Source of the DNA: an uncultured Alphaproteobacteria bacterium
Lineage (GTDB): Bacteria > Pseudomonadota > Alphaproteobacteria > HIMB59 > GCA-002718135
NCBI GenBank assembly: GCA_902604905.1
Contig: CACLAN010000002.1
Coordinates: 1,560 to 65,559 of the forward strand
DNA: 64,000 bases
Direction: 5' to 3'
Shown: piece by piece, positions 1 to 16,551 of the stretch
How positions within the stretch are numbered: position 1 is the stretch's first letter
Layout: each line of letters opens with the position of its first letter
The notes under the pieces: generated by a model
Database searches by the model: none
What the model was told of the DNA's origin: nothing
The model's input: the letters and a program-made list of their open reading frames with translations, nothing else
Program-made: the position numbers and the translations under genes

Positions 1-374
1 TTATTAAAATTAGATTTTTATCAATTTTATTTGGAGGTTCTATGTGTGCACTTGCAGGATCATATATTTCAATTTGTTATGCTCCAATGTGGCAAGAGGG
101 TATGACAGCTGGTCGTGGATGGATAGCGTTAGCTTTAGTTGTATTTGCAACTTGGAAACCAGAAAGAGTTCTTATTGGAGCGTATATTTTTGGAGGCGTT
201 ACTATTCTTCAAATGAATCTTCAAGCACTAGGTCTAAGATTTCCTGGTCAATTTTTTAGTATGGCTCCTTATGTTGCTACAATTATAGTTTTAGTATTAA
301 TATCTAGTAATAAATTAAGAATAAAACTAAGTGCCCCAGCATCTTTGACTATTCCTTTCTATAAAGGAAGATAA
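1..374 (+). CDS. ABC transporter permease, C-terminal fragment (5' end outside window), BMP/nucleoside-type uptake system
   Basis: The frame of ORF 42..374 is open to the window edge and ends at TAA 372-374. The tail is TM-rich and hydrophobic, and the cognate BMP-family binding protein gene follows. Confidence 0.7.
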   Translation, partial: IKIRFLSILFGGSMCALAGSYISICYAPMWQEGMTAGRGWIALALVVFATWKPERVLIGAYIFGGVTILQMNLQALGLRFPGQFFSMAPYVATIIVLVLISSNKLRIKLSAPASLTIPFYKGR

Positions 375-479
375 ATATCCACTCTTTTTTATTTATTTTT
401 CTTATACAATTATTGATCTGATCTGTTTCTATATTACAAATGTTATTGAGTAATCGTTATATTAGCAGGTGAGGTTAAA

Positions 480-1547
480 ATGATTAGAATAATAACTTTT
501 TTATCTACTTTTTTAGTATTTTCATTTGGTTCTGCTTATGCAGACCCTAAAAAAGTTGGATTTATTTATATAGGTCCTCCAGGAGATCATGGTTGGACAT
601 ATATGCATGATGTAGGAAGAAAATATATGGAGAGTCAATTAGGTGACTCCATAACAACTACATATCTTGAAAATATTCCTGAAAATGCAGATGCAGTAAG
701 AGCAATTCGAAAGCTAGCTGACTCAGGACATGATTTAATATTTACAACGTCCTTTAACTACATGGATCAGACACATGAAGTTGCGAAAGACTTTCCTGAT
801 ATAAAATTTGAGCATGCTACAGGATATATACAAGCTGACAATGTTGCTACATATTCAGCTAGATTTTATGAAGGAAGAATGATTGAAGGTCATATTGCTG
901 GTCATATGACTGAAACTAATACTATTGGTTATATAGCTTCATTCCCTATTCCAGAAGTTGTAAGAGGAATTAATGCATTTTATTTAGCAGCAGCTAAAGT
1001 TAATCCAGATATCAAAATGAAAATAATTTGGGTGTTTACTTGGTATGATCCAGGTAAAGAGGCTGATGCAGCTAATACATTAATTAATCAAGGAGCTGAC
1101 ATAATTGTTCAGCATACAGATACATACGCACCTTGCCAAGCCGCACAAAAAGCAGGTGTTTATGCTTTTGGTCAAGCTTCAAACCAAGAAGAATTCTGTC
1201 CTGATGCACATTTAACTTCAATTGAAGATATTTGGGGTCCTTACTATGCTGCAAGAGCAAAAGCAGTTGTAGATGGCACTTGGTCTTCAGGTGATACTTG
1301 GGATGGTATGGATAAAGGTATGGTGGTAATGTCACCATATAATAATAAACTTATGCCAGCAAGTTTGATTCAAGAAGCTGTAAATATGGAAGTTGGAATT
1401 AAAGATGGAACTATTCATCCTTTCACTGGTCCAATTTACAATCAAGCCGGTGAGCTTGTAGTTCCTGAAGGTGAAGTAGCACCTGACGGAATGTTACTTG
1501 GAATGAACTTTTATGTTCAAGGTATTGACGGCGAAGTACCACAATAA
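480..1547 (+). CDS. BMP-family (PnrA/Med-like) periplasmic substrate-binding protein, probable nucleoside/purine binding
   Basis: Signal peptide MIRIITFLSTFLVFSFGSAYA, then GFIYIGPPGDHGWTYMHD, typical of BMP-family binding proteins. SD-like AGGTGAGG at 467-474. Confidence 0.85.
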   Translation: MIRIITFLSTFLVFSFGSAYADPKKVGFIYIGPPGDHGWTYMHDVGRKYMESQLGDSITTTYLENIPENADAVRAIRKLADSGHDLIFTTSFNYMDQTHEVAKDFPDIKFEHATGYIQADNVATYSARFYEGRMIEGHIAGHMTETNTIGYIASFPIPEVVRGINAFYLAAAKVNPDIKMKIIWVFTWYDPGKEADAANTLINQGADIIVQHTDTYAPCQAAQKAGVYAFGQASNQEEFCPDAHLTSIEDIWGPYYAARAKAVVDGTWSSGDTWDGMDKGMVVMSPYNNKLMPASLIQEAVNMEVGIKDGTIHPFTGPIYNQAGELVVPEGEVAPDGMLLGMNFYVQGIDGEVPQ

Positions 1548-1563
1548 TTAAAATTCTTATAAC

Positions 1564-1589
1564 CCTCTCTCTTTATAAGAGAGAGGTTT
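1564..1589 (+). terminator. Probable rho-independent terminator after the BMP binding-protein gene
   Basis: Perfect 10-bp stem CCTCTCTCTT (1564-1573) / AAGAGAGAGG (1577-1586) with loop TAT, followed by TTTAATTCTTATTTT. The T-tract is short and interrupted. Confidence 0.5.
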
Positions 1590-1614
1590 AATTCTTATTT
1601 TCAAAGGATGATTT

Positions 1615-2118
1615 ATGTCTGATTTACACATTAGTTGGGACGAATATAGAAGTAAAACAGAAGACTTAGCAAAACAAATTCATAAGGATGGATGGCAGTT
1701 TAATCAGGTTGTATGTATAGCAAAAGGAGGCATGAGAGTTGGTGATGTAATGGCAAGAATATTTGATGTTCCTTTAGCAATTCTTTCTGTTGAATCATAT
1801 AAAGGTGAGGGAGTAAAAAATAAAAGAGGTGCAATTACATTTTCAAGAGATTTGGCAAAAACAAGCCCTAATATTGGATCAAAAGTTCTAATAGTAGATG
1901 ATTTAGCAGACTCAGGAATTACTCTAAAAAAAAGTATTGATTGGTTAAATCACACTTATGGTTTTTATATAGATGAACCAATAAGAACAGGGGTTTTGTT
2001 TTATAAGTCGGTATCATCATTTAAACCAAATTATTTTGTTGATTACTTGGAAGATTCTCCTTGGATACATATGCCTTATGAGGTTTATGAAACTATGAAA
2101 CCAGAAGAACTTGGTTAA
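1615..2118 (+). CDS. Purine phosphoribosyltransferase (Gpt/Xpt-like type I PRTase)
   Basis: PRPP-binding motif VLIVDDLADSGITL. Its size (167 aa) and layout match xanthine-guanine PRTases, and it sits next to a nucleoside uptake system. Confidence 0.75.
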   Translation: MSDLHISWDEYRSKTEDLAKQIHKDGWQFNQVVCIAKGGMRVGDVMARIFDVPLAILSVESYKGEGVKNKRGAITFSRDLAKTSPNIGSKVLIVDDLADSGITLKKSIDWLNHTYGFYIDEPIRTGVLFYKSVSSFKPNYFVDYLEDSPWIHMPYEVYETMKPEELG

Positions 2119-2792
2119 AAAATTGAAGTAATTTCCTCAAATTTTTTCTTTTCTTTTGCAAACTTTGGAATTTTTGCATCTTTATCTGGTCGTCCTACAA
2201 TAAGTAAAACAAATGGTTTTTCATTGCTAGGTCTCTTCAAAATTTTGTTAAGAAATGTCATTGGACTTGGTGTGTGAGTTAACATTGCTAAGCCAGAAAA
2301 ATGTAAACAAGTAATTAATATACCAGTAGCTATACCAACAGACTCTTTTACATAATAATTTTTTATTTTTTTATTTTTTGAAATTGAAAATTTTTTTTCA
2401 AATATAGCTATTAAATAAGGTGCATTTTCAATAAATTTTTTATTTTCATCAGTTCCTAAAGGAGTTAATGCATCTAACCACTCTTTAGGAGCTTTGTACT
2501 TATAAAAATTTTCTTCTTCTTTTTCTGCTTCTACTCTAATCTTCTTTTTTACAGTTTTACTTTTTATTACAACAAAATGCCAAGGTTGAAGATTTGCTCC
2601 ATTTGGAGCTGATCCTGCAGATAAGATCGCATTTTTAATAACATTTATATCAATTTTATCTTTTGAAAATTCGCGTATACTTCTTCTCTCTTTAATATTA
2701 TTATAAAAATTTTTTGAATTAATCTTCATTTCTTGAATAGTTTGATTTGAAAATTTTAAATCTTCAGCTATGTATTTTTTAACTTTATGCAT
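2115..2792 (-). CDS. Nitroreductase-family flavoprotein
   Basis: RRSIREFS and NLQPWHFVV motifs typical of the FMN nitroreductase fold; 225 aa. Confidence 0.8.
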   Translation of the reverse strand: MHKVKKYIAEDLKFSNQTIQEMKINSKNFYNNIKERRSIREFSKDKIDINVIKNAILSAGSAPNGANLQPWHFVVIKSKTVKKKIRVEAEKEEENFYKYKAPKEWLDALTPLGTDENKKFIENAPYLIAIFEKKFSISKNKKIKNYYVKESVGIATGILITCLHFSGLAMLTHTPSPMTFLNKILKRPSNEKPFVLLIVGRPDKDAKIPKFAKEKKKFEEITSIF

Positions 2793-2975
2793 TGGTTTGT
2801 TATTATTATTGGGATACTGTTAATTTCTTTATCAATTAGTAACCCACTATATAAACTAATTATAAAAAAACGAATAAGATTTAATCTTTTCATTGAAATA
2901 CTGTTCAGGATAATACTATTTTTAATTAGTATAATTATTATTTTTCTAGGTTTGTACTTAGAGAGTATATCTTAA
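2787..2975 (+). CDS. Hypothetical small membrane protein (62 aa, two predicted TM helices)
   Basis: It is the only ORF filling the 180-bp gap between the nitroreductase start and the rhodanese stop. The translation is strongly hydrophobic. No homology recognised; could be spurious in AT-rich DNA. Confidence 0.3.
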   Translation: MHWFVIIIGILLISLSISNPLYKLIIKKRIRFNLFIEILFRIILFLISIIIIFLGLYLESIS

Positions 2976-3304
2976 TATCTTCTTATATTTCTATCGATTA
3001 ATGCAGCCCATGCATCTATTCCGCCAAGTACATTAACACAATGGTTATAACCTTGTCCTTTAAGCCATTTACATACAGCTTGGCTTCTTGTACCGGTATG
3101 ACACATTACAAAAATATTTTTTTTCTTATCTAACTCGGTGTATCTTTTAGCAATTTCTGAAAGTTTCATGTGTATTGTACCTTTAATATGAGCATGATCT
3201 CTTTCAGTATCTTCTCTTACATCTATAATTTGAATTTTTTTGTCATCTTGTTTAAGTTCATTTAACTGATGAACTGTTATTTCACTGCTACTGTAAAGAT
3301 CCAT
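2972..3304 (-). CDS. Single-domain rhodanese-like sulfurtransferase
   Basis: Active-site loop CHTGTRS (Cys-X4-Arg-Ser) in a 110-aa rhodanese-sized protein. Confidence 0.85.
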   Translation of the reverse strand: MDLYSSSEITVHQLNELKQDDKKIQIIDVREDTERDHAHIKGTIHMKLSEIAKRYTELDKKKNIFVMCHTGTRSQAVCKWLKGQGYNHCVNVLGGIDAWAALIDRNIRRY

Positions 3305-3413
3305 ATGATTATCTTATTATAAATACTACTAGATTTCTACTATTTTAAATAAAATTAATTTTAAAAATTAAATTTGTTATTTTTAAGTTTTTCATGTATG
3401 AGCCCATAACATT

Positions 3414-3713
3414 ATGACGAAGAAAATAACTTTTTCAGCTTTTGGTAGAGATTCATATTATCACAGAGATTGGTTCAAAAAAAATGGTTTTAAATTTGAT
3501 AGAAGTTCTAGAAAATGGACTGTAGAAAATTTACCAATAGACAATGCTGAAGAATTTGCTAGTTATTGTAGAAAATATGGTTTAACATTTGAACGATCTG
3601 ATAGAATGATTACAGAATTTGATTATGCAGATTATCTTTGGGATGGAAGAAGAGATGAATTTATGCAACCTTCTGAAAATATTGAAATTCCTCAACCAAA
3701 AAATAAAATCTAA
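3414..3713 (+). CDS. Hypothetical protein (99 aa)
   Basis: Clean ORF with non-low-complexity composition, followed 3 nt later by the next gene. No family recognised with certainty. Confidence 0.55.
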   Translation: MTKKITFSAFGRDSYYHRDWFKKNGFKFDRSSRKWTVENLPIDNAEEFASYCRKYGLTFERSDRMITEFDYADYLWDGRRDEFMQPSENIEIPQPKNKI

Positions 3714-3716
3714 TTT

Positions 3717-4634
3717 TTGTTAAATAAATTAGTATCAAATAATTTCATACTTCTTATAATTTTAGCTGCTATTTGGGGATCTTCTTTTTTCGTTATTAAA
3801 ATTTGTCTGTCTAGTTTTACTCCTACAAGTATAGCTTCCTTAAGATTAATAATAGCATCAATATTCTTAATTATTCTATATTATTCATATAACAAACATC
3901 CTAAATTTAATCTCGAATTAGTTTTAATTCTTTCTTTTATAGGTATTACTGGAAATTTTTTACCATTCTATCTGATTAGTTGGGCTGAACAATATATTCC
4001 TTCTTCTACTGCAGGTTTATTAATGTCAGTTGGTCCCTTTATAACATTACTAATGTCTCATGTATTAACTTCAGACGATAAGTTTACCTGGATTAAATTT
4101 TTATCAATTATTATAGGTTTTGTAGGTATTATTTTTATATTAGATATAAGTAAATTTAATTTTCAAGATGAAAACTACATAAGTACTTTAGCTAAAATTT
4201 TTGTGATTATAGCAGCATTTGGTTACATGATTTCAAATATTGCTGCTTATAATAAATTAAAGAAATTAAGTCCTATTTCTATTACAACTTTTGCTACATT
4301 GTTCGGAGCGATTATATCATTACCATTTTTATTCTATGATTTTATTAATTATGAAAATAATATTAATAAAATTTCATTAATTTCTATTATTTATTTAGGT
4401 GTTTTTCCAACAGCTATTGCCTTTCATATGCGTTATCAAATAGTTAAACAATCTGGTCCAGTTTTCTTATCTTATGTTGCTTATTTAATTCCTGTTTTTG
4501 CTTTAATATGGGGATTCATATTCCTTTCTGAACAAATAGTATTTAGTTCTGTAGTTGGAATTATTTTAGTTTTTATTGGTCTGTTTGTGGGGCAAAAAAA
4601 ATTAATGAGTAAAATATCCGTAAAAAACATATAA
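3717..4634 (+). CDS. DMT-superfamily (EamA-like) transporter
   Basis: About 10 TM helices arranged as two EamA-like halves; 305 aa; TTG start as given in the ORF track. Confidence 0.8.
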   Translation: MLNKLVSNNFILLIILAAIWGSSFFVIKICLSSFTPTSIASLRLIIASIFLIILYYSYNKHPKFNLELVLILSFIGITGNFLPFYLISWAEQYIPSSTAGLLMSVGPFITLLMSHVLTSDDKFTWIKFLSIIIGFVGIIFILDISKFNFQDENYISTLAKIFVIIAAFGYMISNIAAYNKLKKLSPISITTFATLFGAIISLPFLFYDFINYENNINKISLISIIYLGVFPTAIAFHMRYQIVKQSGPVFLSYVAYLIPVFALIWGFIFLSEQIVFSSVVGIILVFIGLFVGQKKLMSKISVKNI

Positions 4635-4732
4635 TACTAATAAAACGGCAATAAAAATAGACACATTTTTGAAGTTAAAGTATTTCATTTATGGTTGATA
4701 TTTAATTTTTTATAGTCCAATATACTTATATT

Positions 4733-6059
4733 ATGAGCGACTCAATTAAATACTTACTTGAAGAAAATAAAGCACCAAAGTTTTGGTATAATATCAATGC
4801 TGACTTACCAAGTCCACCACCACCTCCTTTACATCCTGGAACTAAACAACCGGCTGGTCCTGATGACTTTGCTCCTTTATTTCCAATGGGTCTAATAATG
4901 CAGGAGGTTTCTACTGAAAGAGAAATAGAAATACCTGAACCAGTAAGAGAAGTTTATAAACAATGGAGACCCTCTCCATTATTTCGAGCAAGAAGATTAG
5001 AAAAATTTTTAGATACACCGGCTAAAATTTATTATAAATATGAAGGTGTTAGTCCTACTGGAAGTCACAAACCAAATACTGCGGTCCCTCAAGCATTTTA
5101 AAAGAGATGAATTAAATCATACAGGTGCCCATAAAATTAATAATTGTATGGGACAAATTTTATTGGCAAAAAAAATGGGTAAGTCTAGAATTATAGCTGA
5201 AACAGGAGCAGGACAGCACGGTGTCGCAACAGCAACAGTTTGTGCTCTATTTGGTTTACCATGCATAGTTTATATGGGAGAAAAAGATATCGAAAGACAA
5301 TCTCCAAATGTTTTTAGAATGAAATTACTCGGTGCAGAAATACGATCAGTTTCTACTGGGTCAAAATCACTTAAAGATGCTATGAATGAAGCATTAAGAG
5401 ATTGGGTAACAAATGTTAAAGATACTTTTTATATAATTGGGACCGCTGCAGGACCGCATCCATACCCAGCTATGGTTAGAGATTTTCAATCTGTAATTGG
5501 TAAAGAAGTTCGTAATCAACTTGAAGAACTGGAAGGAAAGGCTCCAGATTTGTTAATGGCATGTATTGGTGGTGGTTCAAATGCTTTAGGATTGTTTCAT
5601 GAATTTTTAGATGACTCAAATGTTGAAATGATTGCTGTTGAAGCAGCAGGGCATGGGATAAAAACTGATAAGCATGCAGCAAGTTTAACAGGTGGTAAGC
5701 CAGGTGTATTGCATGGAAATAAAACATATTTATTACAATCAAAGTCTGGGCAAATTCAGGAGGCGCATTCCATTTCGGCAGGCTTAGATTATCCAGGAAT
5801 TGGACCTGAACATTCATTTTTATTTGAGGAAAAAAGAGTGACATACATGTCGGCAACAGACAAAGAAGCACTGGAAGCTTTTCAATATTGTTGTAAATTA
5901 GAAGGCATAATTCCAGCTTTAGAACCAGCACATGCATTAGCTGCATTAAAAAAAATAGCAAAAAACTATAGTAAAGATAAAATTATTGTCATGAACATGT
6001 GTGGCCGAGGTGATAAAGATATTTTTACAATAGCTGATGAATTAAACATAAAGATTTAA
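4733..6059 (+). pseudogene. trpB: Split/chimeric tryptophan synthase beta locus: a TrpB2-type N-terminal 122 codons (4733..5101, TAA stop), then in the +1 frame a TrpB1-type body lacking about the first 75 codons (homology from about 5097 to 6059)
   Basis: The first part ends ...[44 protein letters not shown], which is the TrpB2 class. The second part reads [16 protein letters not shown]...[13 protein letters not shown]...GGGSNA...GRGDKD, which is the canonical TrpB1 class. The two parts are in different frames and trpA follows at 6060. Confidence 0.7.
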
Positions 6060-6854
6060 ATGACTAATTTAATTAGTCACGCATTTAAAGATGATGAAAA
6101 AAAACTAGTAACATTTGTTACTGGAGGTGATCCTGATTTTGAAACAAGTTTACAAATTATTAAGACAATAATTAATAATGGAGCTGATATTATGGAAATT
6201 GGAATGCCCTTTTCTGATCCAATGGCTGATGGTCCAACAATTCAGTTGTCAAGTAATAGAGCGATAAGTAAAGGAATTGATTTAGAAAATATTTTCTCTT
6301 TAGCCTTCGAGGCAAAGAAAACAAAAAGTGATCTCCCTATTATTTTAATGGGTTACTATAATTTGATTCTATATTTTGGAATTGAGAAGTTTGTAAAAAA
6401 ATGCAAAGAAAATGGAGTTGATGGTTTAATTATTGTAGATCTACAACCAGAAGAAGATGAAGATTTGATCAATGAGCTTAAAAAAAATGATATTGATTTA
6501 ATTAGATTAATTACTCCTACAACTGACGAAGCAAGGCTTAAATTAATATTAAAAAATGCAAGTGGTTTTTTATATTATGTGAGTGTTATGGGAATTACTG
6601 GACAAAAATCTGCTGATCTTAATGAACTTAAAAAATCTGTTGCTTTTATCAAAAAACATACGAGCTTACCAGTTGTGCCAGGATTTGGTATTAAAAACTC
6701 AACTGATGTAAACAATATATGCAAAATAGCTGATGGTGCAGTTGTTGGATCAAGTATAATTAAAATTATTGAAGAGAATTTAAATAACAAAGATAAGATG
6801 TTGTCAGAAATTAATATATTTTCAAAAGATTTGAAAGATGGAACTAAGTTATGA
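6060..6854 (+). CDS. trpA: Tryptophan synthase alpha subunit
   Basis: GADIMEIGMPFSDPMADGPTIQ motif; starts directly after the trpB stop. Confidence 0.95.
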   Translation: MTNLISHAFKDDEKKLVTFVTGGDPDFETSLQIIKTIINNGADIMEIGMPFSDPMADGPTIQLSSNRAISKGIDLENIFSLAFEAKKTKSDLPIILMGYYNLILYFGIEKFVKKCKENGVDGLIIVDLQPEEDEDLINELKKNDIDLIRLITPTTDEARLKLILKNASGFLYYVSVMGITGQKSADLNELKKSVAFIKKHTSLPVVPGFGIKNSTDVNNICKIADGAVVGSSIIKIIEENLNNKDKMLSEINIFSKDLKDGTKL

Positions 6855-7693
6855 ATTGGTTAACAAATTTTGTAAAACCTAAACTATCCTCACTTGTAAA
6901 TAGAAGAAGTGTTCCGGAGAAATTATGGAATAATTGTGTGTCATGTGGAAATATGATTCATCATAAAGATTTAAAGGAAAATTTATATGTTTGTGTAAAT
7001 TGCAATTATCATTTTAGAATGTCTGCAGAAGATAGAATAAAATTGTTTTTCAAAGATGACGATTATAGTGAAATTATCCCAGATAAAATCTCAGACGATC
7101 CACTGAAATTCACAGATAAAAAAAAATATAAAGATAGATTAAAAGAATACAGAAAAAAAACTAATAGAGATGATGCATTTATTCTAATTAAAGGAAAAAT
7201 TAAAGACAAAGAAATTATCTCGGGACTGATGAATTTTGAATTCATGGGTGGTTCTATGGGTAGAGCAGTTGGTGGAGCAATAGTTAAAGGAGCTAAAATT
7301 GCTATAGAAAACAAGCTACCTTATGTAATTGTTACTTCATCTGGTGGGGCAAGAATGCAAGAAGGAATTGTAAGCTTAATGCAAATGCCTAGAACAATTG
7401 CTGCTGTTGATCTGTTAAATGAAAATAATATACCCTACATAGTTGTTCTTACTGAACCTACTACTGGTGGAGTGACAGCTTCTTTTGCAATGCTAGGTGA
7501 TATAACAATAGCAGAACAAGGTGCTACGATAGGTTTTGCAGGTAAAAGAGTTATACAAGACACCATCAGAGAAGAATTACCTATAGATTTCCAAAAAGCT
7601 GAGTACTTAAAAGATCATGGAATGGTTGATATAGTTTCTCATAGAAAAGACCTCAAAGAAACTTTGTACAGAGTATTAGATCATATAAGTTAA
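6851..7693 (+). CDS. accD: Acetyl-CoA carboxylase carboxyltransferase beta subunit
   Basis: N-terminal CxxC-x15-CxxC zinc finger (CVSCGNMIHHKDLKENLYVCVNCNYHF) plus a carboxyltransferase domain; conserved trpBA-accD-folC order. Confidence 0.95.
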   Translation: MNWLTNFVKPKLSSLVNRRSVPEKLWNNCVSCGNMIHHKDLKENLYVCVNCNYHFRMSAEDRIKLFFKDDDYSEIIPDKISDDPLKFTDKKKYKDRLKEYRKKTNRDDAFILIKGKIKDKEIISGLMNFEFMGGSMGRAVGGAIVKGAKIAIENKLPYVIVTSSGGARMQEGIVSLMQMPRTIAAVDLLNENNIPYIVVLTEPTTGGVTASFAMLGDITIAEQGATIGFAGKRVIQDTIREELPIDFQKAEYLKDHGMVDIVSHRKDLKETLYRVLDHIS

Positions 7694-7696
7694 TAA

Positions 7697-8956
7697 GTGA
7701 AATCTAAAACAGAAAAGTTATTAGATGAATTGGTCAAACTTCATCCCAAATATATTGATCTTTCATTAGACAGATTAAAATTATTATTAAAAAAACTAGG
7801 TAATCCTGAAGATCATTTGCCAAAAACAATTCATATTGCAGGTACAAATGGAAAAGGGTCTGTTCAAAGCTTCATAAGAAATATTTTATTGAAGAATGGA
7901 TATAAATGTGATGCATATATCTCACCACATTTATCTAGGTTTAATGAAAGAATAATTCTAAATAATAAAGAAGTAAGTACCAAGAAACTTTACGAAACTC
8001 TAAAATATGTAAAAACAATAAATAATAACAAACCAATAACTTTCTTTGAAATAACAACAGCAGCAGCATTCATATTGTTTAAACAATCAAAATCTGACTT
8101 TCTTATTTTAGAGACAGGATTAGGAGGTCGATTAGATGCAACCAATATAATACCAAAAAAAATATGTAGTATTTTAACGCCAATTAGTTTTGATCATGAG
8201 GAATTTCTTGGAAAAACACTTAAGAAAATTGCTAATGAAAAATTGGGTATAGTGAAGAATTGTAAGTTTGTATTAGTTGGTAAACAAAAAAAAGAATTAA
8301 AAGATCATATTCAAAAAAAACTAAAAAAATTTGAAAATAAATATTTTTATGGAAAAGAATATCGAGTCACAAAATCATTAAAAAATAAGTTTCAGATAAA
8401 AATAGATGGAAAAAAATATTTCTATAATCAACCTTCATTGAATGGAAAGCATCAGGAAGAAAATGCATCAATATGTATTTATTTTGCAAAAATTTTGAAA
8501 AATATGGGTTATAGATTAAACACTAAAGATATTAATGCAGCAATAAAAAAAACTGCATGGCCAGGAAGATTGGAAATTATTAATTATAAACATAAAAAAA
8601 TAATTCTTGATGGGTCACATAATATTGATGGAGCTGATAAACTAAATGAATTTTTAAAAACTAAAAGAATAAAACCCATAGTCTTGTTTGGAATGTTGAA
8701 TAATAAGAAAGCAAATTTATTTTTGAATAAAATAAAAAGAAGAGTATCAAAAGTTTTAGCTATAGAAATTCCGGATGAAAAAAATTCATTTAAAACTAAA
8801 CAAATAAATGAAATTTGTAATTTTCATTCTATTAAATGTGAGCAAATAAATAATATAAATGATGCTTTAAAATATTTTAGATCACATCAACAAAAAATAT
8901 ATTTAATTACTGGTTCTTTGTATTTGATAGGAAAAATTAGAAAAAAACTATTATAA
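7697..8956 (+). CDS. folC: Folylpolyglutamate synthase / dihydrofolate synthase
   Basis: Mur-ligase P-loop HIAGTNGKGS; synteny after accD; GTG start. Confidence 0.9.
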   Translation: MKSKTEKLLDELVKLHPKYIDLSLDRLKLLLKKLGNPEDHLPKTIHIAGTNGKGSVQSFIRNILLKNGYKCDAYISPHLSRFNERIILNNKEVSTKKLYETLKYVKTINNNKPITFFEITTAAAFILFKQSKSDFLILETGLGGRLDATNIIPKKICSILTPISFDHEEFLGKTLKKIANEKLGIVKNCKFVLVGKQKKELKDHIQKKLKKFENKYFYGKEYRVTKSLKNKFQIKIDGKKYFYNQPSLNGKHQEENASICIYFAKILKNMGYRLNTKDINAAIKKTAWPGRLEIINYKHKKIILDGSHNIDGADKLNEFLKTKRIKPIVLFGMLNNKKANLFLNKIKRRVSKVLAIEIPDEKNSFKTKQINEICNFHSIKCEQINNINDALKYFRSHQQKIYLITGSLYLIGKIRKKLL

Positions 8957-9271
8957 ATTGGATTGTATCCAGTTCTCTAATGCTGTTTTAGGAAGACTGC
9001 CAACCTTAGTATCGATTAACTCACCATTTTTAAAGATCATTATTGTAGGAATACCCCTAATACCGTATTTTTGTGGTGTCATAGGGTTCTCATCAATATT
9101 CATTTTATATATTTTAACTTTATCTTTATTCTCAACAGCAATTTCTTCTAAAATTGGGTCAAGTACTTTACATGGACCGCACCATTCTGCACCAAAATCA
9201 ACGACCACTGGAACGTCATTAGTAGATATATCTTTATCAAAAGTTTGATCGTTTGTTATAAGAGTAGACAT
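8951..9271 (-). CDS. trxA: Thioredoxin
   Basis: WCGPC active site; 106 aa. Confidence 0.95.
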   Translation of the reverse strand: MSTLITNDQTFDKDISTNDVPVVVDFGAEWCGPCKVLDPILEEIAVENKDKVKIYKMNIDENPMTPQKYGIRGIPTIMIFKNGELIDTKVGSLPKTALENWIQSNL

Positions 9272-9317
9272 AAATAATATGTAAGAAATATTTATCTATT
9301 ATCAAGCTAAATTAAAT

Positions 9318-9998
9318 CTAATTTTCTAAAATTGATTTTTTATCCCCAATATGTCTAATTTTAGATGGAATTACATAACCTTTGATTTGATTGTTTTTTA
9401 TTAATTTTGTCCAAATTTCATTCATTGGGAATATTTTTTTTCTTTTATTAAAGATTTTTTTAGATACGATTTGAAGGCCGGAGTAATACAATTTCTCATT
9501 TTTATTATTCCAATTTGTAACTACATTTCTTTTTAAATTAAAGTCTCCATTTTCTTTTTTTAAACCTAAAAAATTAATATCTTTAGATAACATCATTTTA
9601 CAGTGAGAAATATCTTGATAATTAGTAAGAAAATATTTGATATGTAATTTATTTTTTTTAGTCCAAAAAATATCAGAATTAACAACACATATTTTTTTTC
9701 TATTTGTATAATTGAAAATATTTTTTACTCCCCCCCCTGTACCAAGTATTTTTTTTTCATAGATAATCTGAATGGGATATTTTTTAAAATTTTTGTCCAA
9801 ATACTTTTTAATTTTATTATGTAAATAGTGTGTATTTATTAAGATTTCATCACATCCAATATTAGTAAAGAAATCAATTGTGTTCTTTAATAATACTTTA
9901 TTTTTATATTTTAACAGAGGTTTTGGGGTACTGCGTGTCAAATTCAGCATTCTTGATCCAAAACCTGCACATAAAATCATTAAAGTAAAATTCTTCAT
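9318..9998 (-). CDS. Sugar-1-phosphate nucleotidyltransferase, MurU-like (MurNAc-1-P uridylyltransferase candidate)
   Basis: N-terminal LCAGFGSRM nucleotidyltransferase motif. It lies downstream of an AmgK-like kinase and tsaE, the usual alphaproteobacterial order. Confidence 0.7.
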   Translation of the reverse strand: MKNFTLMILCAGFGSRMLNLTRSTPKPLLKYKNKVLLKNTIDFFTNIGCDEILINTHYLHNKIKKYLDKNFKKYPIQIIYEKKILGTGGGVKNIFNYTNRKKICVVNSDIFWTKKNKLHIKYFLTNYQDISHCKMMLSKDINFLGLKKENGDFNLKRNVVTNWNNKNEKLYYSGLQIVSKKIFNKRKKIFPMNEIWTKLIKNNQIKGYVIPSKIRHIGDKKSILEN

Positions 9999-10001
9999 AA
10001 A

Positions 10002-10919
10002 TTATAAATACTTTTCATACATTGATCTTAGTTCATAATTTTTAATATTATTCAATGTCGCTATTGTTCTAGATTTAGTTATTTTTAAATAGTTTAAGTA
10101 TTTATTATCATTATTTTTGCTAAGTAATTTTCTCCATCTACCAAGTAATCGAGTCTGTCGAGCTAAACTCAAAACATAATATTGTTCCAGAAAAGTATTA
10201 AAATTTTCAATAATTGAAGTGTTATCATAAAAATATTTAATTAATTTATCATTGTAATCTCTTGTAAAATTAATTCTTGGATTTTCTAATAGTGATATTA
10301 GGTCCCATCCTATAAATCCCTTAAAAGCACTTTGAAAATCAATAATTCCACATTGTAAATGTGATTCACAATTTTCTAAAAAAAATAAATTAACAAATTC
10401 AAAGTCTTTGTGAACAAAGTTTTTCATATTATAATTTTGAGAATAAAATATACTTTTCCATGATTCATAAAATTTTGAAGTTGGAAAATTTGAATTTTTG
10501 CTTCTAGGAATATAATAAGTTACAAACTCTTTAATTTCAATTTTTAAATCTTCAAAAGTGTATTCTTTTAAATTTTTTAAATTATTTAAATTTGATTCAT
10601 TTTGAACAACAATTATATTTTCTACAGCTAGTTTTAAAAGTTTATAAAGATTATCTTTATTGTATATTTTATTAAATCTATTTTTTCCAAAATCTTGCAT
10701 ATATATTTTATATCTCTTTTGATTAACTTCATATATCTTAGGAATTGATATATTGATCTTTTGTAATATTTCATAAACAGTAAGGAAATTTTTAAACTCT
10801 TGTTTATCTCTAGAAAAATCAATTATTATTTTCGTATTCTTTTTTTCATTAATTCTATAAATTAATTTATTAGATAGTCCGTCCTCAATTTTTTCTAAAT
10901 CATTTTGATCAGAATTCAT
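10002..10919 (-). CDS. Aminoglycoside-phosphotransferase-fold kinase, AmgK-like (anomeric MurNAc/GlcNAc kinase candidate)
   Basis: Catalytic-loop-like HKDFEFVN and metal-binding IIDFQSA motifs of the APH/choline-kinase fold; synteny with tsaE and the MurU-like gene. Confidence 0.65.
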   Translation of the reverse strand: MNSDQNDLEKIEDGLSNKLIYRINEKKNTKIIIDFSRDKQEFKNFLTVYEILQKINISIPKIYEVNQKRYKIYMQDFGKNRFNKIYNKDNLYKLLKLAVENIIVVQNESNLNNLKNLKEYTFEDLKIEIKEFVTYYIPRSKNSNFPTSKFYESWKSIFYSQNYNMKNFVHKDFEFVNLFFLENCESHLQCGIIDFQSAFKGFIGWDLISLLENPRINFTRDYNDKLIKYFYDNTSIIENFNTFLEQYYVLSLARQTRLLGRWRKLLSKNNDNKYLNYLKITKSRTIATLNNIKNYELRSMYEKYL

Positions 10920-10923
10920 TAGA

Positions 10924-11370
10924 CTATTGTTTAAAACAAATATTAATTTTTCTTTTAGTTTCTGAAATCATATCTAAATTTATTAAATAATGATTTTTGT
11001 TTAGCGGTAAACTAATTAACATTTCAGGCCACTCTATAAATGTAATATTGTTATTTAAATTTTCGAAGAAATCTAATTCCTCTAACTCCTTTAGGCTCTT
11101 TAATCTATAAAGATCATAATGATATATTTGTGATGAATTAAATTCATATGTTATCAAAATAGGGAATGTTGGACTAGTAATAGAAGATGGTTTTGGTAAA
11201 TTATTTAATACAAAAAGATTATTAATTAATAATCTTATAAATGTTGTTTTACCAGCACCTAGCTCTCCTTGAAATAAGTAAATATCTCCAACTGATATGT
11301 CTTTGCATAAATTTGTAGAGAGTTTTTCAAGTTCACGAAGATCTAAAATTTGATTACTTAATTTTTGCAA
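10924..11370 (-). CDS. tsaE: tRNA t6A37 biosynthesis ATPase TsaE
   Basis: GELGAGKTTF P-loop; about 150 aa; TTG start. Confidence 0.85.
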   Translation of the reverse strand: MQKLSNQILDLRELEKLSTNLCKDISVGDIYLFQGELGAGKTTFIRLLINNLFVLNNLPKPSSITSPTFPILITYEFNSSQIYHYDLYRLKSLKELEELDFFENLNNNITFIEWPEMLISLPLNKNHYLINLDMISETKRKINICFKQ

Positions 11371-11376
11371 ATTTTA

Positions 11377-12546
11377 TTATGCAATACCTTTTAGAGCTTC
11401 CACTAGATCAGTTTTTTCCCAAGTAAAATGTCCCTTGTCACTTGGTTCTCTACCGAAATGGCCATAAGCAGAAGTTGGAACATAAATTGCATTTGTAAGC
11501 TTTAAATGTTCTCTTATTCCTCTTGGACTTAGATCAAATAAATCTTGCACAGATTTTTCAATTTTCTGTTCATCAACTTTATTTGTTCCATTAGTATTTA
11601 CATATACCGATAAAGGTTTTGATACTCCTATTGCATAAGATAACTGTATAGTACACTCATCAGCTAGATCCGCTGCAACAACATTTTTTGCTAAGTACCT
11701 AGCTGCATATGCTGCAGATCTATCAACTTTAGATGGATCCTTTCCTGAAAATGCACCTCCACCATGGGGCGCTGCACCGCCATATGTATCAACTATTATT
11801 TTACGACCAGTTAAACCAGAGTCACCATCAGGGCCTCCAATTACAAAGTTGCCTGTGGGATTAACATAGAATTCTTCATCTTTAAGGCCTTCTAACAAGT
11901 TATTAGGTATGCACTCATATACGTAAGGTTTAACAATTTCTTTTACGTCCTCAGGAGATAAACCTTCTTTGTGTTGTGAAGAAATAACTAAAGAAGTAAC
12001 TTTACTTGGTTTTCCGTTTTCGTAAAGCATTGTAACTTGGCTTTTTGAATCAGGTTCTAGACCAGATGCAGATCCATCTTTACGGGCTTGTGCCATTTTA
12101 TATAATATTTGATGAGAATAATGTATCGGTGCTGGCATTAATGATTCAGTGTCTTTACAAGCAAAACCAAACATGATTCCTTGATCGCCTGCGCCCTCAT
12201 CTTTATTGCTACCAGAATCAACACCCATCGCAATATCAGCTGACTGCTCATGAAGAAAACTTTCGATATCACAGTTCTGCCAATGAAAGCCATCTTGTTC
12301 ATAACCAATATCTTTAATACAATCTCTAACTTGAGATATAATCTTATCTTTAGGAACTGATGGCCCCCTTACTTCTCCAGCTAAAACTACTTTATTGGTG
12401 GTGGTCAAAGTCTCACAAGCTACGCGTGTTTGTGGATCACCAGAAGATAAATAAGTATCAACAACCATATCTGAAATTCTATCACAAACTTTATCTGGAT
12501 GGCCTTCAGAAACTGATTCACTTGTAAACAAATAAGATCTTTTCAT
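11377..12546 (-). CDS. metK: S-adenosylmethionine synthetase
   Basis: [24 protein letters not shown] and GGGAFSGKD motifs. Confidence 0.97.
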
Positions 12547-12554
12547 ATTAACTC

Positions 12555-13862
<1,308 letters not shown>

Positions 13863-13868
13863 TTATAA

Positions 13869-15578
13869 TTACTTTTTTAATGGTAATTTAACAAGAAAAC
13901 AAGCTCCACTAAAGTTTAAATTGTCACTTTCTGTTAATTCAATTGAACCATTGAATGAATTGATTATTTCGTATGATATTGAGAGCCCAAGACCTGAATG
14001 TTGATCTCTGTCATTTATTCTATCAGTATAAAATCTATCAAAAATTTTGTTTTTTTCTTTTAAATCTATACCCATACCTTGATCATAAATTTTTATTTCA
14101 ACACAATTTTCATTTTTTTTATTTGATGTAATTAATACATTTGAATTATTTTGAGCAATTGAAATGCTATTGTCTATCAAATTTAGCATTACCTGCAAAA
14201 ATTTATCTTTGTTAAGAAGCACCAAATTTTTATTATTATCAGTTTGAGTAAAAATTTTAATATTTTTTTTGTTTGTTGAATGTTCCCCAAAATTTTCTTT
14301 TAAAAATTTGTTTACATTAATTAATTCAAAATTTTCTATTTCAATTTCTGCAATAGTTTTTGAAAAATGAGAAATATCAGAAATCAACTTATTCATTCTA
14401 TCTATATCTTTATTAAAATTATTTATTAGTGTTAATCGATTTTTTTCATTCATATTTTTACTAGTTAATAATTCGATAGAAGATTTAATTGCAGTAAGTG
14501 GGTTTTTTAATTCATGTGCAACATCAGAGCTAAATTTTTCTAATTGATTAATCTGCGACTTCAATTCGTTTGACATAAGTTGTATTTGATTAGATAAAAT
14601 ACCAATTTCATCTAATCTTACAGGGTACATTAATTTATTCTTATTAGTTTTATCTCTCTCTAAAACAGTTATTTTAGTTAACTGCTTAAGTGGTGTTATG
14701 AGGCTTCTCAAAAAAATAAATGATAATAAGATTGTAACTAAAATAAATAAAAGAAAAAAATTAAAGAAATTTAAAGATTGTCTAGCTAATTCATTATTAT
14801 TTATTAATAATTTATACTTTATTAAAACAACTCCATAGACCTTATTATCTTGTATTATAGGTGCTGTTAATATTTTAGTTATATCATTATTTTCGTCTCT
14901 AAATGACTTAACAAGTTGTTGCTTATCTTTAATAGTTTCAATAATTAAAATAATCTCATGAACATTTTTATCTAAATTTTTATTAAATTTATTTGCAAGA
15001 ATGTAATTATTAATACGGTTAAAATTATTAATATAAATATTTTCAAAAAAATTTGGAAAATCAACTATATTTTCACTTGTTTCAGATAAATTTATCTCTT
15101 CAACATCTGTTCTCAGAAACAAGTTTGTGGAGTCCGCAATTTTAATCCAATTTTCATTGTAAATAATAGTGTTAAAATCTTTATCACCAAAGTTTTGAAA
15201 TATAAATTGTTCAGTCGTAAACTTTTCTAACTCAGGTTCGGATAATTCAATAGGATTAGTATTATCAACTAAGTTGCAACTCTCCTTATATGTATCAATA
15301 TCTTGAAGATATCTACAACGATAATCATACTGAAAAATTGGGACTCTTAATATTGAGGTATTTTCCAAATATTTTGCTATATTTGATAAATTTAATCTTA
15401 TTGTTTGATCTCTATTATCTATGAATTTATTATTTTGAATTAAATTGAAATTGAAATAAGATAAAAATACTAAACCTAAAAATACAATAATTAAGTTTAG
15501 TATAATGAGTTGAAATGTTAAATTATAACTTGATAAGTTAAATAATCTTTTAATCACGCCAAGAATATCCAGAGCCAT
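13869..15578 (-). CDS. Sensor histidine kinase, ChvG/ExoS/BvrS-like
   Basis: Two TM segments flank a roughly 250-aa periplasmic region. H-box DVAHELKNPLTAI; ATPase G-boxes DQGMGI and GLGLSIS. It overlaps the upstream OmpR-family regulator. Confidence 0.85.
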   Translation of the reverse strand: MALDILGVIKRLFNLSSYNLTFQLIILNLIIVFLGLVFLSYFNFNLIQNNKFIDNRDQTIRLNLSNIAKYLENTSILRVPIFQYDYRCRYLQDIDTYKESCNLVDNTNPIELSEPELEKFTTEQFIFQNFGDKDFNTIIYNENWIKIADSTNLFLRTDVEEINLSETSENIVDFPNFFENIYINNFNRINNYILANKFNKNLDKNVHEIILIIETIKDKQQLVKSFRDENNDITKILTAPIIQDNKVYGVVLIKYKLLINNNELARQSLNFFNFFLLFILVTILLSFIFLRSLITPLKQLTKITVLERDKTNKNKLMYPVRLDEIGILSNQIQLMSNELKSQINQLEKFSSDVAHELKNPLTAIKSSIELLTSKNMNEKNRLTLINNFNKDIDRMNKLISDISHFSKTIAEIEIENFELINVNKFLKENFGEHSTNKKNIKIFTQTDNNKNLVLLNKDKFLQVMLNLIDNSISIAQNNSNVLITSNKKNENCVEIKIYDQGMGIDLKEKNKIFDRFYTDRINDRDQHSGLGLSISYEIINSFNGSIELTESDNLNFSGACFLVKLPLKK

Positions 15579-16263
15579 ATCTTGTTCTTATTTGATCAAA
15601 AGAATTATCATAAGATCTGAATTTTTTTCTTAATCTCTTTATGTGACTATCAATAGTCCTATCATCAACATAAATAGAGTCACCATACATAGCGTCCATT
15701 AATTGATTTCTATCTTTTACTACTCCAGGATACTGAGCAAGTGATTTAATTAAATTAAACTCTGCAACCGTAAGCTCAATTTCTATACCTTTCCAAAAAC
15801 ATAATTGCTTATTTTCATCTAGTATTAAATCACCTTTTACAAAATTTTGTTTTTCAATATTCTTATTTTTTTGATCTTCGGTTCTATTATTATGAATCCT
15901 TAGAACTGTTCTCACTCGTTCATTTAACAATTTTTGTGAAAATGGTTTTTTTATATAGTCTGAAGCACCCATTCTCAATCCGATAATTTCGTCTTGTTCA
16001 TGATCTTTTGATGTTAAAAAAATAATTGGAAGTTCTTTTAATTTTTCAACCTTGCTTGAACGTACTTTTGAAAGAAGTTCATTTCCATCCATTTTTGGCA
16101 TCTTAATATCAAATAACCCCAAATCATAAGATTTGCTTTCAAGAGCCTTCAAAGCCTCAACCCCGTTAATAAATGTATCAACTCTAAACCCCTCACTTTC
16201 TAAAGAAAGAGACACTGATGTGAGAATCGACTGTTCGTCATCTACTAATGCTATATTTGTCAT
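15550..16263 (-). CDS. OmpR/PhoB-family response regulator, ChvI/BvrR-like
   Basis: Receiver domain (VDDEQ, FDIKMPKMDG) plus a winged-helix domain (RTIDSHIKRLRKKF). Confidence 0.9.
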   Translation of the reverse strand: MTNIALVDDEQSILTSVSLSLESEGFRVDTFINGVEALKALESKSYDLGLFDIKMPKMDGNELLSKVRSSKVEKLKELPIIFLTSKDHEQDEIIGLRMGASDYIKKPFSQKLLNERVRTVLRIHNNRTEDQKNKNIEKQNFVKGDLILDENKQLCFWKGIEIELTVAEFNLIKSLAQYPGVVKDRNQLMDAMYGDSIYVDDRTIDSHIKRLRKKFRSYDNSFDQIRTRYGSGYSWRD

Positions 16264-16497
16264 AACAGATTTTATTAATAATTTATGGCAGATTTAAGTT
16301 AAAAGAAAAAATGACTCAATTAATAAATTTAACAAAATGTGACTTAAGTTGATAAGTAAATCTAAATATTTCAATAACTTGTTTGTGTCTGGAAAATATC
16401 AATTAAGTAAGGGATTGACATGATAAAAAAAATATTTATGTTCTTATTTTGTTCTTATTGCGATATTGAGCAAATGTTGTATTGTCCCTTTTCGGCG

Positions 16498-16513
16498 GCA
16501 CTACATATTGTGT
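16498..16513. promoter_or_regulatory. Candidate NrdR box upstream of nrdA
   Basis: GCACTACATATTGTGT matches my recollection of the 16-bp NrdR palindrome acaCwAtATaTwGtgt at 14 of 16 positions. It lies 39 nt before the nrdA ATG. No convincing tandem second box was found. Confidence 0.3.
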
Positions 16514-16551
16514 TTTTCGACAATAATTTTTTAAAAATGGATAGAATTTAA

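Follow-up and report, generated by a model that had tools for sequence, protein, structure and literature searches.

How do the front of one gene and the back of another come to lie end to end, and out of frame, within what appears to be a single trpB? The question is raised by one locus in the window, the name used here for the whole 64-kb stretch of DNA that was analyzed. Tryptophan synthase beta genes fall into two paralogous classes, and many prokaryotes carry trpB_1 in their trp operons together with an unlinked trpB_2 (PMC1854888, PMC2395257). The lineage under study follows this pattern in that it has both classes, with trpB1 adjoining trpA in an operon and trpB2 unlinked. At the locus in question, an open reading frame of one class stops at a TAA codon, and the sequence continues in the +1 frame with codons of the other class. 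The original prediction offered three readings of this arrangement: an intermediate in gene replacement or pseudogenization, a recoded gene in which a +1 slip joins the two frames, and a chimera made during amplification or assembly.

Organization of the trpB Locus

The locus begins with a 122-aa ORF at positions 4733–5101, in which codon 113 (AAA, 5069–5071) specifies lysine. A run of four Ts occupies 5096–5099, and its last base opens the 0-frame stop codon, TAA, at 5099–5101. In the +1 frame, coding sequence extends from 5100 to a stop at 6057–6059 and includes a second lysine codon at 5133–5135, 64 nt past the first PLP-lysine codon. The downstream fragment lacks residues 1–83 of trpB1 as well as any start codon of its own. 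It is followed by trpA, which starts at 6060, and then by accD (6851–7693) and folC (7697–8956). Every coordinate and sequence statement of the original prediction was reproduced when the sequence was re-read. The features of the locus are listed below, with related loci designated by L-numbers.

1–5099, plus strand: left block, the native trpB2 neighborhood, with genes for an ABC permease, a BMP lipoprotein, a phosphoribosyltransferase, a nitroreductase, a rhodanese, a 99-aa protein and EamA, then the trpB2 5′ end; colinear with L100, L102, L103, L086, L087 and L088
3717–4634, plus strand: EamA-family transporter (Pfam EamA), the native upstream neighbor of trpB2
4733–5101, plus strand: trpB2 5′ fragment, codons 1–122, with PLP Lys113 and a TAA created by the junction (NF009057, 181 bits)
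5095–5099, no strand: breakpoint ATTTT, the sole stretch common to both parents (left-type alignments run to 5099, right-type alignments from 5095)
5100–6059, plus strand: trpB1 3′ fragment, codons 84–402 in L003 numbering plus the stop, with PLP Lys at 5133–5135 (TIGR00263, 546.6 bits)
6060–6854, plus strand: trpA, abutting the trpB1 stop (TIGR00262, 288.7 bits; Pfam Trp_syntA)
5095–16000, plus strand: right block, the native trp-operon neighborhood, with the trpB1 3′ part, trpA, accD, folC, thioredoxin and further genes; colinear with L003–L015

The right block was compared as far as position 16000, and the loci of relatives were taken with 10-kb flanks. The window has a G+C content of 28%, with no shift in composition across the join, and searches for repeats, compositional anomalies and Rfam families returned nothing at or near the junction.

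Class Assignment of the Two Fragments

NCBIfam profile searches run separately on the two parts place them in different classes. Residues 4–122 of the upstream part match the TrpB-like/TrpB2 model NF009057 at positions 3–121 of 441 with 181 bits, as against only 18 bits for the TrpB1 model TIGR00263; the 181 bits lie below the NF009057 cutoff of 366, so that the part is classed as a TrpB2 fragment and not as a complete TrpB2 (NF009057, TIGR01415), a protein of about 440–455 aa. The 319-aa downstream part matches TIGR00263 at positions 71–383 of 385 with 546.6 bits, above the cutoff of 392.45, versus 147 bits from position 101 onward for NF009057. Protein comparisons agree with these assignments. 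The 122-aa fragment is 91–99% identical to the TrpB2 proteins of the clade, and the 319-aa part is 99% identical in amino acid sequence to residues 84–402 of the TrpB1 of L003, a close relative, and aligns with E. coli TrpB from residue 74 (tblastn). ORF 4733–5101 comprises codons 1–122 of a TrpB2-type gene, and from 5100 the sequence consists of TrpB1 codons 84–402. The proposal that two paralog classes meet here, as opposed to an indel having struck one gene, is thus confirmed by the separate profile searches.

According to the profile coordinates, about 21 positions centered on the PLP lysine are present twice, which bears out the prediction that the catalytic-lysine segment is encoded in duplicate with an offset of about 21 aligned residues. 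The TrpB1 part is without its N-terminus: the trpB2 5′ fragment and EamA stand where relatives have trpF. A tblastn search of the 64-kb window for the reciprocal product, i.e., another TrpB2 body or a TrpB1 N-terminus, found neither.

The trpB2 Neighborhood to the Left

All 12 left-type sequences follow the window as far as 5099 exactly, beyond which they run on as native trpB2, with the continuation TTAATAAAGAAG or TTAACAAAGAAG. Six sequences (L083–L088) align to exactly 5099 before diverging, with L086, L087 and L088 showing 94–98.4% nucleotide identity. Six further metagenome contigs share the 40 nt left of the junction, and all of them continue with TTAATAAAGAAG, the native trpB2 sequence; in three of these (L100, L102 and L103), colinearity with the window extends from its first base to exactly 5099, at 94–96% nucleotide identity. 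The native continuation can be written ...GCATTTTTTAATAAAGAAG, and its diagnostic k-mer is CAAGCATTTTTTAATAAAGAAG. At the protein level, the closest TrpB2 fragments in the databases proceed from ...PQAF to FNKEEG..., as ordinary TrpB2 does.

The closest left relative is L088 (NCBI assembly GCA_902562455.1, a single-cell genome), with 98.4% nucleotide identity and an EamA protein that is 100% identical. EamA was the sole window protein with an exact counterpart in the public gene collection; TrpA, MetK and the products of the 122-aa and 339-aa ORFs had none there. Its EamA gene is followed by an intact trpB2 of 454 aa and by DUF1015, and the full 454-aa trpB2 is also seen in L086. In contexts reached by way of the EamA neighbor, the native order is rhodanese (minus strand), the 99-aa gene, EamA, trpB2 (454 aa) and DUF1015, and L086 and L087 have the same EamA-trpB2 order. 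The trpB2 contexts of L001, L002 and L089–L098 belong to other sublineages and have different neighbors.

A candidate second instance of the truncated gene was considered and rejected. P0058 (L105) is a 122-aa protein ending in ...PQAF, but it ends there because a TAC codon has become TAA, in frame, within an otherwise normal TrpB2 gene of high GC content. P0073, a further candidate, is another 122-aa TrpB2 fragment, ending in ...QAF.

A separate observation concerns trpB2 in another sublineage of the Pelagibacterales, where an identical 454-aa TrpB2 occurs in at least six neighborhoods as a sharply bounded module of ~1.45 kb. A conserved 29-nt direct repeat, AAAGTCCAAATTTCGTTTGATGTGTGAGG, borders this module on both sides, and ten loci hold 70 same-strand copies of it. 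The repeats separate cassettes of 0.1–3 kb (mostly 0.4–2 kb) whose genes lie in either orientation, and the loci look like a repeat-delimited gene-cassette array. The repeat has no match in Rfam and does not occur in the 64-kb window.

The trpF-trpB1-trpA Operon to the Right

A genome scan with the TrpB1 part yielded 13 close relatives (L003–L015), with 88–93.5% nucleotide identity over 10.9 kb, as well as more distant ones. These 13 are all AG-numbered single-cell assemblies, which we take to be single amplified genomes of the Bigelow SCGC/GORG-Tropics series. At each of the 23 right-type loci (L003–L025), DNA similarity to the window begins at 5095 (at 5097 in one of them) and is colinear through trpA, accD, folC and onward. 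The 10-kb upstream flanks of the same loci contain no match to the window left of 5095.

In the relatives, trpF lies directly upstream of trpB1 (22 of the 22 whose 5′ end was checked), and trpB1 itself is intact at 402–404 aa in 21 of 22 checked, the exception being L011, with a 1-nt insertion in a run of Gs. L003 exemplifies the native order, aroA-cmk-rpsA-ihfB-pyrF-trpF-trpB1(402 aa)-trpA; the native trpB1 sequence before the breakpoint is ...AAAATTTATTTTAAAAGAG, and the upstream diagnostic k-mer is CCAAAAATTTATTTTAAAAGAGATG. It had been suggested that the locus sits in the usual trpBA-accD-folC context. This description is accurate for the right side, but the 5.1 kb on the left come from another locus, and the trpF that precedes trpB1 in 22 of 22 relatives is absent.

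The Breakpoint and Its Uniqueness

To judge from these alignments, the locus is a synteny breakpoint that joins two distant loci and not a lesion within one gene. The first locus (rhodanese, 99-aa gene, EamA, trpB2) is cut after trpB2 codon 122, and the second (trpF-trpB1-trpA-accD-folC) is cut before trpB1 codon 84. When native trpB2 (L088) and native trpB1 (L003) are aligned as the junction joins them, ATTTT is the only stretch they share, with 8 of 11 positions matching around it. The placement of the breakpoint in the T run was correct and can now be refined to the shared ATTTT at 5095–5099. The longest k-mer that the two parental genes have in common is 11 nt, and both parents carry a weak, patchy similarity of the form GGTCC-N7/8-ATTTT. 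In relatives, the two loci are >10 kb apart, and no relative with trpB2 and trpB1 on one stretch was found among the loci taken with 10-kb flanks.

The junction is a singleton. It is absent from all 35 related loci, both left-type (12 of 12) and right-type (23 of 23). A degenerate 30-nt pattern of the junction gave 0 matches in 185,579 species-representative genomes and 0 in JGI metagenome contigs. When 1.84 billion representative proteins were scanned in full with HMMER, none was recovered that spans both halves of the hypothetical 441-aa fusion; the top matches to the fusion query are TrpB1-type and cover residues ~121–435 only. Here the locus parts company with known TrpB1/TrpB2 paralogy, since known genomes keep two separate, intact genes and a natural hybrid with a TrpB2 N-terminus and a TrpB1 C-terminus was not encountered in those 1.84 billion representatives.

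These results bear directly on the proposal that the gene is recoded, whereby a programmed +1 frameshift of the prfB (RF2) type at UUU UAA A would yield a fusion enzyme of 441 aa, TrpB2(1–122)-TrpB1(84–402). In formal terms the site at 5096–5102 is slippery: tRNA-Phe can re-pair from UUU at 5096–5098 to UUU at 5097–5099 with a stop codon in the A site, much as in prfB, where CUU UGA C likewise combines a P-site codon that is re-pairable in the +1 frame with a 0-frame stop. Beyond this the likeness ends. The putative slippery site is the recombination overlap itself and is unconserved, being found in none of the 35 related loci and in neither large collection. The upstream 15 nt, GCGGTCCCTCAAGCA, hold no GGAGG- or AGGGGG-like element, so that the Shine-Dalgarno-like stimulator of prfB is missing. 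Nor would the product be colinear in the manner of RF2, as the two frames encode overlapping parts of two families with a 21-residue overlap, and not consecutive parts of one protein; the ~21 doubled positions include the PLP lysine. On the profile coordinates, such a fusion would not be expected to fold properly. Programmed +1 frameshifting, which the original prediction had entertained, is effectively excluded as an account of the locus.

Both fragments have the appearance of genes kept under purifying selection up to the present. Relative to L003, the trpB1 fragment differs by 35 synonymous and 3 non-synonymous codon changes, and the changes private to the window number 5 synonymous and 1 non-synonymous. 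The trpB2 fragment differs from L088 by a single synonymous change in 366 nt. By this measure, decay and relaxed selection are evident in neither fragment, and the event that joined them is therefore either extremely recent or not biological.

Two mechanisms of joining can be set aside on sequence identity. Homologous recombination between the two genes is ruled out, since no k-mer common to them exceeds 11 nt and they coincide at the junction in ATTTT only, and the same 11-nt maximum, together with the 5-nt overlap at the junction, rules out a misjoin in a de Bruijn graph. With shared k-mers of ≤11 nt and no more than ATTTT at the junction, what remains is a microhomology event, either a polymerase switching templates in vitro or an illegitimate recombination within the cell.

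Origin of the Junction

Any explanation has to account for the breakpoint, for two separate parental contexts, for a microhomology, for a junction that is unique and for fragments free of decay. The probable explanation is that whole-genome amplification or assembly produced a chimeric join, and this is also the best supported of the three readings originally put forward. Such a join would amount to a non-homologous splice of two loci through the 5-nt overlap ATTTT, formed outside the cell when a polymerase switched templates during multiple displacement amplification (MDA) of a single cell. A displaced 3′ end reading ...GCATTTT would have primed on ...TTTATTTT/AAAAGAG, and the assembler would then have taken the switched product into the contig. 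The apparent slippery site, UUU-UAA, would be nothing other than the overlap, and the two PLP-lysine segments would be each parent's own copy. On such a scheme the source organism should keep an intact trpB2 and an intact trpF-trpB1 elsewhere in its genome.

Several lines of evidence favor an in vitro or in silico origin of the join over one in vivo. Almost all of the nearest relatives are genomes amplified from single cells, which suggests the same of the source. MDA chimeras arise at a rate of ~1 per 10–22 kb of product (Lasken & Stockwell 2007, PMC1855051), and 76.8% of them have 2–21 nt of complementarity at the junction (PMC1855051). The join in the window resembles them in its singleton status, in that the segments united are not adjacent in reference genomes and in its 5-nt overlap, which falls within the 2–21 nt range. 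In addition, a sister genome, L086, has a chimera at the same locus: a truncated htpG is joined to an inverted copy of the rhodanese/99-aa/EamA-5′ segment from 6.9 kb away, and this join is an obvious inverted chimera. The benchmark of the SCGC workflow gave 1.5 misassemblies per 100 kb (PMC11247762), a rate that corresponds to about one per 64-kb window.

Other features sit less comfortably with a chimera. Inversions of segments <10 kb apart account for about 85% of MDA chimeras (PMC1855051), whereas the segments joined here lie >10 kb apart; at such distances, direct and inverted MDA joins are about equally common (PMC1855051). Microhomology of 5 nt is equally typical of illegitimate recombination in vivo. 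Contiguous sequence extends from the junction for at least 5.1 kb to the left and ~59 kb to the right, so a chimeric path must have dominated the coverage. Finally, near-register joining of two paralogs is not a known property of MDA. That a random join would bring two paralogs together in the same orientation and within 21 codons of the homologous position is very improbable, at ~5e-5 by our own estimate for a 1.3-Mb genome. We attribute this coincidence to a selection effect, the locus being a striking case among very many chimeric junctions, and it is equally unexplained under a real rearrangement. The GGTCC-N7/8-ATTTT similarity may have helped to bring about a join near register.

A narrower version of the artifact would be purely computational, with contigs set end to end without a spacer in the making of the record or window, or with a metagenomic assembler merging two strains or loci. 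The breakpoint is abrupt, both sides are otherwise perfect copies of native loci, and the contig of one relative (L021) stops, by coincidence, 17 nt upstream of the corresponding position in trpB1, all of which would suit a join of this kind. Blunt concatenation would seldom leave a 5-nt parental overlap, however (~0.3^5, or ~0.2–0.3%, by our own estimate from base composition), graph assemblers need ≥21 identical bases where the two genes share ≤11, and composition is unchanged across the join. We consider a purely computational origin quite improbable.

The remaining alternative is a real and very recent rearrangement in one cell or lineage, in which trpB2 codon 122 would have been fused to trpB1 codon 84 by illegitimate recombination through the ATTTT microhomology. 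We regard this as unlikely, though a good deal less so than a computational join. With its 5-nt microhomology, the junction is built as illegitimate recombination would build it, the sequence on either side is long and clean, and the window shows no frameshift litter elsewhere. Moreover, frameshifted trpB2 alleles recur in independent assemblies of the clade, so trpB2 may be dispensable in some lineages. Like hybrid pseudogenes formed by illegitimate (microhomology-mediated) recombination between distant loci, the locus has two truncated genes fused out of frame, here at a 5-nt overlap, with flanks that keep their native synteny. Real cases, however, are inherited and usually show decay or a population frequency, whereas the present junction is a single sequence without decay: it is missing from the 12 left-type and 23 right-type relatives and from both large collections, and relaxed selection is seen in neither fragment. 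A real event would also destroy trpB1, a strongly conserved gene of which 21 of the 22 relatives checked have an intact copy.

Three variants of such a rearrangement can be envisaged. A deletion would presuppose that the loci share an orientation with trpB2 upstream, and it would also remove aroA, cmk, rpsA, ihfB, pyrF and trpF, the genes directly upstream of trpB1 in L003; the loss of rpsA should be lethal. A tandem duplication would require the trp operon to lie upstream of the EamA locus, and both genes would then persist as intact copies. An inversion would call for loci in opposite orientation; neither trpB gene would remain functional, trpA would be separated from trpF-trpB, and the reciprocal hybrid would lie at another place in the genome. 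Synteny is highly conserved in this streamlined group. Such conservation makes a real rearrangement rarer than an assembly error at 1.5 per 100 kb (PMC11247762). The suggestion of a gene-replacement or pseudogenization intermediate accordingly survives only if recast as a large and very recent rearrangement that united two distant loci; it does not hold as gene replacement.

Implications

Were the rearrangement real after all, a streamlined marine alphaproteobacterial cell would have been caught essentially at the birth of the event, before any decay. As an inversion, it would mean that both tryptophan synthase beta genes were lost at once, leaving a fresh Trp auxotroph or an indole-independent cell.

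Under the preferred reading of a chimeric join, the meaning of the locus is a different one. Most likely it is not a new biological feature but a junction akin to MDA-type chimeras and only superficially similar to prfB. Since the microhomology behind a chimeric join is itself a homopolymer run, the result can pass for a slippery site followed by a stop codon. Taken at face value, the locus would receive one of three misannotations: a trpB pseudogene, from which Trp auxotrophy would be concluded for an abundant ocean bacterium, a recoding site or a hybrid enzyme of TrpB1 and TrpB2. The contig is best treated as broken at 5095–5099, with no metabolic, auxotrophy or recoding inference drawn from the locus.

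Inverted Duplications in Single-Cell Contigs

The locus that makes up the left half of the window also harbors a chimera in a related genome. In L086, a left-type (EamA-trpB2) relative represented by a single-cell contig, the terminal 1004 bp are an inverted copy of the contig's own start, and this copy is fused to an htpG gene cut to 339 aa. The segments brought together by the inverted join are 6.9 kb apart.

L086 (SAG GCA_902571445.1, contig CACGBW010000009.1), 7801-8804 versus 1-1004: inverted copy, equivalent to positions 2771-3774 of the window

The join is a typical inverted amplification chimera that was retained in the deposited assembly. A second single-cell contig, L092 (GCA_902513565.1), which carries a trpB2 context of another sublineage, contains a four-gene block duplicated in inverted orientation, the copies being ~10 kb apart with a tyrosine recombinase between them.

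L092, 1745-4837 versus 14177-17209: inverted duplication of the genes for YjgF, CN_hydrolase, Redoxin and a 134-aa product

This duplication may be a genuine inverted repeat, or it may be a further chimera of amplification.

Anomalies in trpB1 and trpB2

Two other single-cell assemblies, both of right-type (trpB1) relatives, are anomalous within ~30 nt of the trpB1 position that matches the window's breakpoint. L011 (AG-426-J10) has a 1-nt insertion in a G8 run at ~9975-9985, resulting in a trpB1 frameshift, while the contig of L021 (AG-447-A02) ends, at its position 1, 17 nt upstream of trpB1 codon 84. These anomalies may be a coincidence, or they may mark a spot that is hard to amplify or assemble.

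Frameshifted trpB2 alleles recur across independent data sets, namely in loci L083-L085 and L002 and in database proteins P0006-P0009 and P0018. For example, L083-L085, which derive from three independent ENA metagenome assemblies, share an identical 1-nt deletion (GAAGGTGTT to GAAGTGTT) near trpB2 codon 104. A second frameshift, following ...EEGVKK, would fit the shortening of an A-run, which has A7 and would need A8 for the reading frame to be restored. One NCBI single-cell genome, one JGI contig and two ENA contigs carry it. Such alleles may be real pseudogene alleles or may reflect slippage-prone poly(A) tracts.

Repeats and Gene Cassettes around trpB2

Outside the window, among the trpB2 contexts of the other sublineage (L089-L098), exactly the same 454-aa TrpB2 (P0375) occurs in at least six different gene neighborhoods. 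It is encoded by a sharply bordered module of ~1446 nt, with 98.5-99.4% identity. Example stretches, neither of them in the window, are as follows.

L093, 8461-12992: example stretch
L089, 9928-11402: example stretch

Both sides of the module bear a conserved 29-nt direct repeat, AAAGTCCAAATTTCGTTTGATGTGTGAGG. With up to 4 mismatches tolerated, 70 copies of this repeat, all on the same strand, were counted across ten loci of 8-21 kb. The repeat corresponds to no Rfam family, and no paper on it turned up in a single keyword search of the literature. Cassettes between the repeats span 0.1-3 kb (mostly 0.4-2 kb), carry genes in either orientation and, like the TrpB2 module, are shuffled from contig to contig in L089-L098. 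A tRNA gene adjoins the end of the repeat array in L094, and L092 possesses the tyrosine recombinase. The arrangement looks like an array of gene cassettes delimited by repeats, lying within a hypervariable region of Pelagibacterales-like genomes.
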